Shown here in pieces: positions 4,364 through 54,920 of a stretch of 64,000 nt of DNA. The DNA lies in NCBI RefSeq assembly GCF_001677475.2, contig NZ_CP015229.1, one strand, 5' to 3'. Position 1 is the first letter of the stretch. The number at the start of each line of letters is the position of its first letter. Source of the stretch: Escherichia coli (GTDB lineage Bacteria > Pseudomonadota > Gammaproteobacteria > Enterobacterales > Enterobacteriaceae). The position numbers and the translations under genes were made by a program. The notes below the pieces were generated by a model. That model was given only the letters and a program-made list of their open reading frames with translations. It was not told the origin of the DNA and did not search any database.

Positions 4364-5494
4364 GGGAACAACTTTCGGGCGCAAAAACATTGCCGGAAGC
4401 GCCACCAGCGCCATCACCCAGAACACGCCGTGCCCCAGATATTGATACAGGAAACCGGCGAAAACGGTCATGATCGCAATACTGCCGCCCATCGCGACGG
4501 CAGAGTAAACCGCCTGTAAACGGATGACTTCGCTACCCTGGCGAGCGGCAATATAGCGCATGGCGGCCAGGTGGCAGACCGTGAAGGTGCCGCAATGCAG
4601 AATTTGCACCACTATCAACCACGGCAACGCCGTCGTTGCTCCCATAATGCCCCAGCGCACTACGCCGCAAATCGCCGAGATCAACAGCATATCGCGTGCA
4701 CTACAACGGCGGAAAAGTTTATTACTCAGCGCAAAGATAATGACTTCCGCCACTACGCCCAGCGACCACAAATAGCCCACCGCCGAGGCCGAGTAGCCAG
4801 CAGCCTGCCAGTAAATGGCGCTAAAACCGTAATAGGCCGCATGCGCCCCCTGCAATAAACAAACGCAGGCCAGAAAGCGCCAGTTCTGGCGAACCAGCGC
4901 CAACCACGCAGACCAACCGGTGCTCTCCTGCTGGCGGCTTGCCCCTTGTGGCTGAATCGTCGGACGGATGAGAAAGCCGAGCAGCATGGATGCCACGCCC
5001 AACGTTAACAGCGCGAGGATCACCCGATAATCAAACATAGTGACCAGTTTACCCGTCAACGCCGAGCCAATGACAAACGCCACCGAGCCCCACAATCGCA
5101 CTTTGCCGTAATCAAGCGGGAACTGCTTTTGCCACGTATTCGCCAGTGCATCGGTCAACGGTACCAGCGGTGAGAAAAAGAGGTTAAAGCCAATCATCAC
5201 CAGCATCAGCCACGCTACGTGCGCCCCCGCCCAGAATGCGACAGCAAAGAGAAGTGTCAGCAGTGCCAGCACGCGCAAGGCGGAAATCAGGCGAGAAGGA
5301 TCGCTGACGCGGGGCGCGATGAGCAAACTCCCGAGAAAACGGGCAACCAGACCTGCCCCCAATAACAGGCCGATGGTTTCTGGCGTTAAACCAATCCCCT
5401 TAAGCCAGACGCTCCAGAAAGGTAGAAAAATGCCGTAACTAAAAAAGTATGTGAAATAGCCGAGCGCCAACCAGCGCGTGGATTGCAAAACCAT
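4355..5494 (-). CDS. hcaT: MFS transporter HcaT (putative 3-phenylpropionate transporter)
   Basis: 379-aa polytopic membrane ORF recognised as HcaT; adjacent to hcaR. Confidence 0.85.
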   Translation of the reverse strand: MVLQSTRWLALGYFTYFFSYGIFLPFWSVWLKGIGLTPETIGLLLGAGLVARFLGSLLIAPRVSDPSRLISALRVLALLTLLFAVAFWAGAHVAWLMLVMIGFNLFFSPLVPLTDALANTWQKQFPLDYGKVRLWGSVAFVIGSALTGKLVTMFDYRVILALLTLGVASMLLGFLIRPTIQPQGASRQQESTGWSAWLALVRQNWRFLACVCLLQGAHAAYYGFSAIYWQAAGYSASAVGYLWSLGVVAEVIIFALSNKLFRRCSARDMLLISAICGVVRWGIMGATTALPWLIVVQILHCGTFTVCHLAAMRYIAARQGSEVIRLQAVYSAVAMGGSIAIMTVFAGFLYQYLGHGVFWVMALVALPAMFLRPKVVPSC

Positions 5495-16031: not shown

Positions 16032-17015
16032 TTAGGGCAGACCATCAACGTGCGTTGCCAGCCACTGTTTACCGTCTTCCGTTTTGGTATAGAGATCGAT
16101 AGGCACCTGAATCACTTTGTCACCGTCGGCTTGTTTATTGATAACCTTCAATGTTTGCGCAAAAACAGCATTGCCCATTTTCTTACCGGAAATATCCACC
16201 ACCGCTTTCAGCACCTGGTTATTTTCCAGTTCCTGAGCAATTTCAGTCGTCATATCCGAACCGAAAACAGCAATTTTTCCGGCCTGATTTTGATTGCGTA
16301 CCGCTTTTACCGCGCCGAGTGTCGCACCGCCCGATTCCCCCATAATGGCGTTGAGATCCGGCGTGGAGATAATCAGTTTTTCACCAACGGAAATCGCTTT
16401 ATCTAAAACAGTCCCTTCCTGATTAGCGACAATTTGCGCGCCGGGAACCCGGGCTTTTAATACTTCTTCAAACCCTTTACGTCGTTGCACACAAACTTCA
16501 AAGGCTTCGCAATTGATGACGGCAATTTTCGGCTGGTCAATTTTGTTGGCAATAAAATAATCGGCGGCAGCGTTACCCAGTTTTTTACCAAATTCCAGCG
16601 GATCGCCGACCAGATACGCCGAGACATATTTATCGACACCCTTTTGATTAATACAGGTGTTGTAGCAAATCACCGGAATACCCGCTTCACTGGCGCGACG
16701 AACGGTACGGCTACTGCCATTTTCAGACACTGCCGATAAAATAATGGCATTGACATTACGCGCCACAAGGGTATCAACAAAGGTACTTTCTTTCGAAATA
16801 TCGCCCTGGGCGTTAGTTTCTATTAACTGAACCTGTACTGAAGAATCTTTTGCTGCATCCTGAACACCCTGACGCACACCGGCATAATATCCCTGAGTAT
16901 CAAGGTATATTGCACCAATGGTCATTTCTTTATCCGCAGCCCTGGCAAATAGTGCGCTACCTAATAGCGTAGCCATTAATAATAGATTACGGGTTGTTCT
17001 CATTTTTTTAGGCAT
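16032..17015 (-). CDS. yphF: Periplasmic sugar-binding protein YphF
   Basis: 327 aa with N-terminal signal peptide; RbsB-like fold. Confidence 0.88.
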   Translation of the reverse strand: MPKKMRTTRNLLLMATLLGSALFARAADKEMTIGAIYLDTQGYYAGVRQGVQDAAKDSSVQVQLIETNAQGDISKESTFVDTLVARNVNAIILSAVSENGSSRTVRRASEAGIPVICYNTCINQKGVDKYVSAYLVGDPLEFGKKLGNAAADYFIANKIDQPKIAVINCEAFEVCVQRRKGFEEVLKARVPGAQIVANQEGTVLDKAISVGEKLIISTPDLNAIMGESGGATLGAVKAVRNQNQAGKIAVFGSDMTTEIAQELENNQVLKAVVDISGKKMGNAVFAQTLKVINKQADGDKVIQVPIDLYTKTEDGKQWLATHVDGLP

Positions 17016-23299: not shown

Positions 23300-23332
23300 A
23301 AGATGCATTTGAGATACATCAATTAAGATGCA
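23300..23332. promoter_or_regulatory. Putative NsrR operator at the hmp promoter
   Basis: AT-rich imperfect inverted repeat AAGATGCATTT...AAGATGCA overlapping the hmp -10 region. Confidence 0.4.
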
Positions 23333-45455: not shown

Positions 45456-46408
45456 TGCGCTGCCCCGAACTTAATATTCTCGGCAATGCGTTTCGCCGTT
45501 TGCGGCGGCAGTTCACCGACAATGGTGATTTCGGCGTTATCACGTACGCTTGTACTGACGGTTCTGCGTCCGGTGCGCAACATCTGATCGGTGCTCGATG
45601 GCGTAGCGCGGTTAACGTTTACCGAGAAGCTGAATAATCCGTCGGAATAGAGACGTGATTCGATAGGCATGTTGTCCATCGTCGGTAGCGGACGTCGACT
45701 ACTGGAAACTTCGCTAAAACCCTGTGGCAACCAGGTTGGCGTCCAGCTGAATTTAGCTTTTTCACCTACAGGAACAGAAAGCAACGGCGGCAAATTTGCC
45801 TTCGCCAGCGTCTGCATACTGCTGCTGATATCCTGATTGACGTTAAAAGCAATCACGCGAAATTGTTCCAGCGTTTCACCATCGCGATCAAGGAGATCAA
45901 CCCTCATCGGTAATTTCGATTCAGTGTCCATCCACACGATGTAGCTGTAGCGTGTACCATCTCGGGCAACCACGCGAATGACTTCGCAAAGACGATCAGC
46001 AATACGCGTGCGCCCGACGGAGATAAAGTCGTAGTAAGGAGAAAGGCGTTTGAAATCGGTATAGATGAGCGATGGCAGAGAATCAACAATGTAATCGCCA
46101 TTAAGCGTGAACGGTTCAAGTCCCGGTTCAAAATAGCTGATTTCATTGCCGCGCTGTACCACTTCCCGGCGCGGGCCATCCATTTGCAACAATTGTGCAA
46201 GAGGACGGTTATCGAGGCGTGCATGTCGATAACGCAGAGACTCAACACCCTGTTTATTGATGCTGATGAATGACAGCTCGTAATTCAGTGACTGACTGGC
46301 CAGGTTCATCTGCTGTAATAACGCCCCGGACGCGGGAGTGGCCGAGGCGTTAGCAGAGAATAACAGGCTACCTGTCACTAATGACATGGCAAACCAAAGT
46401 TGCTTCAT
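45452..46408 (-). CDS. rseB: Sigma-E regulatory protein RseB
   Basis: 318 aa with signal peptide. Confidence 0.92.
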   Translation of the reverse strand: MKQLWFAMSLVTGSLLFSANASATPASGALLQQMNLASQSLNYELSFISINKQGVESLRYRHARLDNRPLAQLLQMDGPRREVVQRGNEISYFEPGLEPFTLNGDYIVDSLPSLIYTDFKRLSPYYDFISVGRTRIADRLCEVIRVVARDGTRYSYIVWMDTESKLPMRVDLLDRDGETLEQFRVIAFNVNQDISSSMQTLAKANLPPLLSVPVGEKAKFSWTPTWLPQGFSEVSSSRRPLPTMDNMPIESRLYSDGLFSFSVNVNRATPSSTDQMLRTGRRTVSTSVRDNAEITIVGELPPQTAKRIAENIKFGAAQ

Positions 46409-52900: not shown

Positions 52901-53488
52901 GTGACACCGACCCTTTTAAGTGCTTTTTGGACTTACACCCTGATTACCGCCATGACGCCAGGACCGAACAATATTCTCGCCCTTAGCTCAGCCACAACGC
53001 ACGGATTTCGTCAGAGTACTCGCGTGCTGGCAGGGATGAGTCTGGGATTTTTAATCGTCATGTTGCTATGCGCGGGAATTTCGTTTTCACTGGCTGTTAT
53101 CGACCCGGCAGCAGTGCATCTGTTGAGTTGGGCGGGGGCGGCATATATTGTCTGGCTGGCGTGGAAAATCGCTACCAGTCCAACAAAGGAAGATGGGCTT
53201 CAGACAAAACCAATCAGTTTTTGGGCCAGCTTTGCTTTGCAGTTTGTGAACGTCAAAATCATTTTGTATGGCATTACAGCACTGTCGACGTTTGTCCTGC
53301 CGCAAACGCAGGCGCTAAGCTGGATAATTGGCGTCAGCGTTTTGCTGGCGATGATTGGGACGTTTGGCAATGTGTGCTGGGCGCTGGCGGGGCACCTGTT
53401 TCAGCGATTGTTTCGCCAGTATGGTCGCCAGTTAAATATCGTGCTCGCGCTGCTGCTGGTCTATTGCGCGGTACGCATTTTCTATTAA
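52901..53488 (+). CDS. eamB: Cysteine/O-acetylserine exporter (RhtB/LysE family)
   Basis: 195-aa membrane protein recognised as EamB/YfiK. Confidence 0.85.
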   Translation: MTPTLLSAFWTYTLITAMTPGPNNILALSSATTHGFRQSTRVLAGMSLGFLIVMLLCAGISFSLAVIDPAAVHLLSWAGAAYIVWLAWKIATSPTKEDGLQTKPISFWASFALQFVNVKIILYGITALSTFVLPQTQALSWIIGVSVLLAMIGTFGNVCWALAGHLFQRLFRQYGRQLNIVLALLLVYCAVRIFY

Positions 53489-53490
53489 TG

Positions 53491-53522
53491 AAAAAAGCGG
53501 AAGAGGTCGCCCTCTTCCGCTT
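53491..53522 (-). terminator. Rho-independent terminator of grcA
   Basis: GCGGAAGAGG-TCGC-CCTCTTCCGC hairpin; U-tract on the minus strand. Confidence 0.65.
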
Positions 53523-53542
53523 AGTAACTTGCTACTTAAGCC

Positions 53543-53926
53543 TTACAGGCTTTCAGTAAAGGTACGAGCGATAACGTCGCGCTGCTGTTCCGGAGTCAGA
53601 GAGTTAAAGCGAACTGCATAACCGGATACACGGATGGTCAGCTGCGGATATTTTTCCGGATGCTTAACTGCATCTTCCAGAGTTTCACGACGCAGAACGT
53701 TTACGTTCAGGTGTTGACCACCTTCAACGCGAACTTCTGGTTTCACTTCTACTGGAACTTCACGGTACTCAATGTCACCCAGTTTGCTTACTGCAACCAC
53801 TTCGTCTTCTGCAAAACCTGCTTTCGCAACGATGCAACGCGCTTCGCCTTTTTCGCTGTCCAGCAGCCAGAAAGAGTTCAGCAGATCGTCGTTAGCGGCT
53901 TTAGTAATCTGGATACCTGTAATCAT
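53543..53926 (-). CDS. grcA: Autonomous glycyl radical cofactor GrcA (YfiD)
   Basis: ORF trimmed to [14 protein letters not shown]... (127 aa); C-terminal glycyl-radical motif RVSGYAV. Confidence 0.92.
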
Positions 53927-54033
53927 GTGATGCCTCCCCGGCAAAATTATTTGATTTGTTCAGCCTGTCGCGGCCAATTGGTAAAACCATTGTTGCTTGA
54001 GTGTATATATACTCCTCAAACACCCTTGAATCT

Positions 54034-54047
54034 TTGATTTAAATCAA
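54034..54047. promoter_or_regulatory. FNR binding site in the grcA promoter
   Basis: TTGAT-TTAA-ATCAA, a perfect match to the FNR consensus TTGAT-N4-ATCAA. Confidence 0.65.
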
Positions 54048-54230
54048 TAAAAACCACACATCAAGTATGGTCGCAAATGGATTTTATTGTTTTACATCAA
54101 CTTATGCAGGTGTGAATTTTTACCAATTTACATTTTTTTGCACTCGTTTAAGTCTAAAAAATGAGCATGATTTTGTTCTGTAGAAAGAAGCAGTTAAGCT
54201 AGGCGGATTGAAGATTCGCGGGAGAGCGAG

Positions 54231-54920
54231 ATGGCAAACGAATTAACCTGGCATGACGTGCTGGCTGAAGAGAAGCAACAACCCTATTTTCTTAATACCC
54301 TACAGACCGTCGCCAGCGAGCGGCAGTCCGGCGTCACTATCTATCCGCCACAAAAGGATGTCTTTAACGCGTTCCGCTTTACAGAGTTGGGTGACGTTAA
54401 AGTGGTGATTCTCGGCCAGGATCCTTATCACGGACCGGGACAGGCGCATGGTCTGGCATTTTCCGTTCGCCCCGGCATTGCGACACCGCCGTCACTGCTG
54501 AATATGTATAAAGAGCTGGAAAATACTATTCCCGGTTTCACCCGCCCTAATCATGGTTATCTTGAAAGCTGGGCGCGTCAGGGCGTTCTGCTACTCAATA
54601 CTGTGTTGACGGTTCGCGCAGGTCAGGCGCATTCCCACGCTAGCCTCGGCTGGGAGACCTTCACCGATACAGTCATCAGCCTGATCAACCAGCATCGCGA
54701 AGGCGTGGTGTTTTTGTTGTGGGGATCACATGCACAGAAGAAAGGGGCGATTATAGATAAGCAACGCCATCATGTACTGAAAGCACCGCATCCGTCACCG
54801 CTTTCGGCGCATCGTGGATTCTTTGGCTGTAACCATTTTGTGCTGGCAAATCAGTGGCTGGAACAACATGGCGAGACGCCGATTGACTGGATGCCAGTAT
54901 TACCGGCAGAGAGTGAGTAA
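54231..54920 (+). CDS. ung: Uracil-DNA glycosylase
   Basis: 229 aa; GQDPYH and HPSPLSA motifs. Confidence 0.95.

Follow-up and report, generated by a model that had tools for sequence, protein, structure and literature searches.

The region between the divergent grcA (yfiD) and ung genes in this stretch of Escherichia coli DNA (64,000 nucleotides, analysed as a whole and called the window below) is, with a probability of about 0.95, the grcA promoter with the tandem FNR architecture described for K-12: a perfect FNR palindrome (FNR I) centred at −40.5 and a weaker FNR site (FNR II) centred at −93.5. An earlier note on this DNA had placed a perfect FNR palindrome at 54034–54047 and assigned it to the grcA promoter. 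The location proved exact and the attribution correct, and both its identification of grcA and its assignment of the palindrome to FNR agree with the published account of the promoter. Its second, weaker FNR element, near 53950–53966, was misplaced. The second FNR site is 54087–54100, which the note had missed, and the correction moves the site from +43.5 in the leader to −93.5 upstream. For E. coli, all of this is already known: the promoter, its two sites and where they lie, and the peak of expression under microaerobic conditions were published in 1998–2001. The site sequences, positions, spacing, identity with K-12, and conservation given here were seen in this analysis; that FNR binds, activates, and represses here and that expression peaks microaerobically is taken from the literature, the primary papers being known to us through later ones. 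The features of the locus are listed in Table 1.

Table 1. Features of the grcA locus (window coordinates; positions relative to +1 refer to grcA)
Feature	Position	Strand	Description and basis
Terminator-like hairpin	53495–53522	−	12-bp stem with 7 GC pairs, then a T run; consensus scan only
grcA (yfiD) coding sequence	53543–53926	−	127 aa plus stop, ATG at 53926; open reading frame list and E. coli/K-12 annotation
grcA 5′ UTR	53927–54000	−	74 nt; from the derived +1
Shine-Dalgarno sequence GGGGAGG (plus-strand CCTCCCC)	53933–53939	−	Conservation 0.84 in 42 Enterobacteriaceae sequences
Lone TTGAT half-site (53951–53955), not an FNR site	53951–53964	strandless	+37 to +50, 5′ UTR
PdhR box, AATTGGTAAAACCATTG	53976–53992	strandless	+9 to +25; pyruvate-relieved repression
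Predicted ArcA region	53979–54010	strandless	−10 to +22; three direct-repeat elements
grcA +1	54000	−	Arithmetic from published coordinates; probably good to ±1–2 nt
−10 element TATATA (sense)	54006–54011	−	Read from sequence; block conservation 0.86
FNR I, TTGATTTAAATCAA	54034–54047	strandless	0 mismatches; centre 54040.5 = −40.5; class II activating site
FNR II, TTGTTTTACATCAA	54087–54100	strandless	1 mismatch; centre 54093.5 = −93.5; weaker upstream site, lowers expression when occupied
ung (uracil-DNA glycosylase)	54231–54920	+	Divergent neighbour, bounds the intergenic region; open reading frame list and annotation

The grcA locus in the window

The 1 kb of the window around grcA was up to 99.9% identical to E. 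coli chromosomes, and the annotation eamB, grcA, ung was present in 5,425 of 5,426 complete E. coli genomes. The divergent grcA–ung intergenic region (53927–54230) is 304 bp long and has a GC-content of 37%. Comparison with K-12 strain MG1655 (locus L081) revealed complete identity from inside grcA to position 54107, a segment that includes both FNR sites; the differences found were at 54108 and 54117, upstream of FNR II, and at 54220 and 54236, near the start of ung. Because the two sequences are the same across both FNR sites, the experiments published for K-12 are directly applicable to the window. Downstream of grcA, between the convergent eamB and grcA genes, there is a strong terminator-like hairpin (Table 1) that is probably the grcA terminator. 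The GrcA protein is an autonomous glycyl-radical cofactor that takes the place of the glycyl-radical domain of pyruvate formate-lyase after oxygen has cleaved it (PMC8683613).

Two FNR sites upstream of grcA

The window was searched for FNR sites with up to two mismatches over the 10 core positions of TTGAT-N4-ATCAA. FNR I was the sole exact match in the 64 kb. Since 0.09 exact matches were expected in the window and at least one was present in 9 of 100 shuffled windows, the count of one perfect palindrome, taken alone, is weak evidence and not significant. We regard FNR I as more than a chance match because it lies upstream of grcA, has a partner site, is conserved, and is backed by published experiments. 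FNR II was one of only four sites in the window with a single mismatch to the consensus. The centres of the two sites are exactly 53 bp apart, or about five helical turns, which places them on the same helical face; this spacing equals the published gap between −40.5 and −93.5. The position of FNR II falls in the zone from −85 to −95 that belongs to the yfiD-type tandem architecture.

Genome-wide binding data cover both sites. Myers et al. (2013) reported yfiD as directly FNR-activated, with a site at −40.5 and a ChIP peak, and their supplement lists TTGATTTAAATCAA at 2,714,579 (PWM score 17.25 bits) and TTGTTTTACATCAA at 2,714,632 (13.87 bits), both beneath an FNR ChIP peak; the ChIP-seq peak at 2,714,605–607 corresponds to window positions 54060–54062, between FNR I and FNR II (PMC3688515). 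The yfiD/ung region was also an FNR target by ChIP-chip (Grainger 2007). FNR I is contained in the yfiD-P1 oligonucleotide, and primer m097, which turns TTGATgtaaAACAA into TTTATgtaaAAAAA and so mutates the G of each half-site, produced the 'FNR II' mutant yfiD-m (PMC10208419). The target of m097 is the reverse complement of window positions 54087–54100, which pins FNR II to that location. From site quality, that is, a perfect site versus one with a mismatch and the higher versus the lower of the two PWM scores, we infer that FNR I would have the greater affinity for FNR.

Three other one-mismatch FNR-like sites lie elsewhere in the window. That at 23309–23322 (TTGAGATACATCAA) directly follows a −10-like box (TATAAGAT) and precedes the ATG (23349) of an open reading frame starting MLDAQT (hmp, flavohaemoglobin) by 26 bp; this position would fit the FNR repressor site known at the hmp promoter. 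The remaining two are at 16138–16151 (TTGATAACCTTCAA) and 46257–46270 (TTGATGCTGATGAA).

Transcription start, promoter core, and other regulators

No report of the grcA start site was found in our literature search, and +1 was taken from three independent sets of published coordinates. Its placement at 54000 follows from the FNR I centre at −40.5, the ArcA site at −10/+22, and a coordinate offset of 2,660,545 that was fixed by the site sequences. The σ70 ChIP peak in the supplement of Myers et al. (2013), at 2,714,546, is window position 54001 (PMC3688515). The sense-strand base at the literature +1 is a T, an uncommon base at which to start transcription; thus, +1 may be off by 1–2 nt.

The hexamer TATATA is separated from FNR I by 22 bp, and there is no −35 hexamer because FNR I occupies the −35 position. 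With FNR I centred at −40.5 relative to the literature +1, the −35 replaced, and a spacing of 22 bp to the −10, the geometry is that of a class II promoter. A generic σ70 scan of 53400–54400 found no complete promoter; because a missing match is expected for an activator-dependent class II promoter lacking a −35, this result was not counted against the promoter.

Two other regulators have sites around the start of transcription. With a conservation of 0.95 in the Enterobacteriaceae, the PdhR box exceeded every other block of the intergenic region, and the PdhR gSELEX table of Anzai et al. (2020) lists AATTGGTaaaACCAtTg, located at window positions 53976–53992, for grcA/ung, with a 12/14 match and a strong peak (PMC7660256). 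The supplement of Park et al. (2013) gives an ArcA site, TGGTAAAACCATTGTTGCTTGAGTGTATATAT, at 2,714,524–2,714,555 (−10/+22), together with an ArcA ChIP peak at ung/yfiD (PMC3798270). The early transcribed region from 53976 to 54010 is crowded, with the PdhR box overlapping the predicted ArcA repeats. A PdhR-like half-site is also present at 54113–54128 (near −120), farther upstream than FNR II; of its sense-strand sequence, AATTGGTAAAAATTCA, the AATTGGT half alone matches, and the region is poorly conserved (0.41).

An Rfam scan of 53400–54400 (E at most 1) gave only two chance-level matches, to a plant miRNA family and to SorY; both were far below their gathering scores and were rejected, so that the leader has no known RNA element. 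Between the FNR sites, centred near −62, there is an imperfect inverted repeat, ACCACA-N7-TATGGT (54053–54071), and perfect versions of it occur in other E. coli strains (ACCACA...TGTGGT and ACCACAT-ATCGA-ATGTGGT). The scan also flagged this repeat as a terminator-like hairpin (minus strand, 54072–54052), which was dismissed on the grounds that its stem is weak (3 GC pairs) and that no upstream gene is there to be terminated; it is polymorphic in E. coli and poorly conserved across genera, and we take it to be a chance or unexplained inverted repeat.

Conservation of the tandem sites in the Enterobacterales

One genome per species was used, giving 80 grcA loci. For each, the 320 nt upstream of the gene were searched, and sites with at most two mismatches were scored as FNR-like. 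A pair of FNR-like sites 52–53 bp apart was present in 61 of the 65 Enterobacterales loci, from Escherichia to Yersinia, Serratia, Dickeya, Pectobacterium, Erwinia, Hafnia, and Edwardsiella; control segments of the same loci contained FNR-like pairs in 0 of 74 cases. The proximal site was usually the better of the two in the Enterobacterales. The only exceptions to the 52–53 bp pair were three Pantoea loci (L048, L063, and L069), which have a single FNR-like site of the TTGAC-N4-GTCAA type with no distal partner, and Plesiomonas (L075), in which the two sites are 44 bp apart.

Among 42 Enterobacteriaceae sequences, conservation was 0.94 for FNR I and 0.94 for FNR II versus 0.61 for the spacer between them. 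Among E. coli strains, the 75-bp segment that holds the two FNR sites varies by up to about 7%; in the divergent strains sampled, all of the substitutions were outside both 14-mers, with the spacer being variable. Conservation in the relatives of E. coli indicates that the tandem architecture is under selection.

A different layout in the Pasteurellaceae

Seven Pasteurellaceae loci (L044, L047, L051, L052, L054, L059, and L065) have tandem FNR-like sites 42–44 bp apart, about 85–140 nt before the ATG, which is at 1201 in these loci, and in all seven the better site, which is often perfect, is the upstream one. An extended −10-like box, TTGATAAAAT, was conserved in 13 of the 15 Pasteurellaceae loci. 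If the conserved TGATAAAAT box (TAAAAT) is the −10, the strong sites would lie at about −89 to −93 and the weak sites at about −46 to −49; we offer these positions as a lead. Whether the grcA tandem is an ancient selected trait that was re-spaced between lineages is a matter on which we lean toward doubt, although the idea deserves mention as a tentative one.

Alternative explanations

The shuffling results and the AT-richness of the intergenic DNA are both compatible with the palindrome being a chance occurrence without function, but it is conserved together with a partner at fixed spacing in nearly all of the Enterobacterales loci, and FNR ChIP peaks and mutational data have been published for the identical K-12 sequence. 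Those data already refute a chance origin, to which we attach virtually no credence. A second possibility is that the sites mainly serve the divergent ung gene rather than grcA. They do lie in a shared divergent region, with FNR II 137 bp from the ung ATG; in genome-wide FNR studies, however, the peak is attributed to yfiD, with the site at −40.5, and it is yfiD, not ung, that is listed as FNR-activated (PMC3688515). The best −10-like hexamer in the ung direction, as read from the sequence, would put FNR II near −47.5, which is non-canonical, whereas the spacing from FNR I to the −10 fits grcA exactly. With both the FNR regulon tables and the geometry against it, we judge ung very unlikely to be the regulated gene. 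To our knowledge, ung has no role in the FNR circuit.

The layout proposed in the earlier note would make the TTGAT-containing element at 53950–53966 a functional second FNR site acting with the palindrome, for example as a downstream roadblock. The pentamer is present at 53951–53955 and is slightly better conserved (0.75) than its surroundings, but the other half-site is wholly mismatched. The best FNR alignment within 53935–53975, at 53951–53964 (TTGATTTGTTCAGC), differs from the consensus at 5 of the 10 core positions; five or fewer mismatches are found at 5,205 of the roughly 64,000 window positions (about 8%), and TTGAT/ATCAA pentamers occur at 3.3 per kb in the window. This alignment was absent from the matches to the FNR consensus with at most two mismatches in the 64 kb. 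Conservation of the 17-bp element was 0.59 in the same 42 Enterobacteriaceae sequences, which is the background level of the inter-site spacer and far from that of the true FNR sites. The earlier note had itself named class I or class II geometry as decisive for its sites; being downstream of the start, in the 5′ UTR, the element is compatible with neither. The PWM matches given for yfiD/ung by Myers et al. (2013) are only the two upstream sites (PMC3688515), and promoter fragments of 129 bp and 78 bp, which stop near 53984 and so exclude the element, keep the FNR II-dependent behaviour (PMC10208419). We therefore rejected 53951–53964 as a third FNR site on its mismatch count and conservation, and we consider it extremely improbable that it is the functional partner of the palindrome. 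The idea that two FNR sites lead to non-monotonic control by oxygen survives and matches the literature, where it was already known; the element to which it had been attached does not.

Oxygen response and proposed mechanism

The tandem of FNR I and FNR II has a published oxygen response. Green, Baldwin and Richardson (1998) announce in their title that yfiD is downregulated by FNR occupancy at −93.5, and the title of Marshall et al. (2001) reads 'A novel promoter architecture for microaerobic activation by the anaerobic transcription factor FNR'. Start mapping, fnr-dependence tests, and site-mutation experiments of the kind proposed in the earlier note were done in 1998–2001 and again in 2023. 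The wild-type yfiD promoter has higher activity under microaerobic than under fully anaerobic conditions (PMC10208419, citing Marshall 2001), and mutation or deletion of FNR II results in much stronger anaerobic expression (PMC10208419). The yfiD transcript increases 7- to 12-fold on a shift from anaerobic to microaerobic conditions, and its regulators are given as ArcA (+), FNR (+/−), and PdhR (−) (PMC3181329). Occupancy of the activating site does not prevent downregulation from the upstream site, and in model promoters repression is strong when the upstream site is between −85 and −95 (PMC11264516). Suppression by upstream-bound FNR has been summarized twice, and the way in which the upstream dimer interferes is described there as unknown (PMC3445967, PMC11264516).

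These observations are consistent with the following sequence of events. As oxygen falls, active FNR dimers would first fill the perfect, high-affinity site at −40.5, which overlaps the −35 position and from which FNR activates as a class II activator. In full anaerobiosis, the larger amount of active FNR would also fill the weaker site five helical turns upstream, and the upstream dimer would then lower activation by the downstream dimer. Expression thus peaks under microaerobic conditions, when oxygen damages pyruvate formate-lyase and the GrcA spare part is needed. PdhR and ArcA, with sites at +9 to +25 and −10 to +22, add pyruvate and redox inputs.

Comparison with known systems

The promoter was confirmed genome-wide in 2007 and 2013 and is already in use as an engineering part (2023), and our results change nothing for E. 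coli. The only new material is comparative, namely the breadth of the 52–53 bp pair and the differing layout in the Pasteurellaceae. The Pasteurellaceae spacing is a minor lead for studies of repression by upstream-bound FNR; if the layouts do give different oxygen-response curves, they would constitute a natural experiment on position-dependent FNR repression. In the Enterobacterales a strong proximal site is combined with a weak distal one at 52–53 bp, whereas in many Pasteurellaceae the distance is 42–44 bp and the distal site is the stronger, and Pantoea has one site.

The closest known system is the K-12 yfiD (grcA) promoter itself, with FNR I at −40.5 and FNR II at −93.5: the locus, the site sequences, and the 53-bp spacing are the same, and the regulatory core has no differences. 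With the single-site class II promoters near −41.5, such as narG, dmsA, and nirB (Myers 2013), the grcA promoter shares a TTGAT-N4-ATCAA site over the −35 position, the lack of a −35 hexamer, and FNR dependence. In contrast to those promoters, grcA has a second, weaker site between −85 and −95, which results in a microaerobic peak instead of a monotonic anaerobic switch. Position-dependent interference of an upstream dimer with activation by the promoter-proximal dimer is shared with tandem repression in the CRP family, described for FNR at melR-derived promoters (Barnard, Green and Busby 2003) and for CRP (Lee and Busby 2012; PMC3445967). At CRP promoters of that tandem type, repression acts through the αCTD (PMC3445967).
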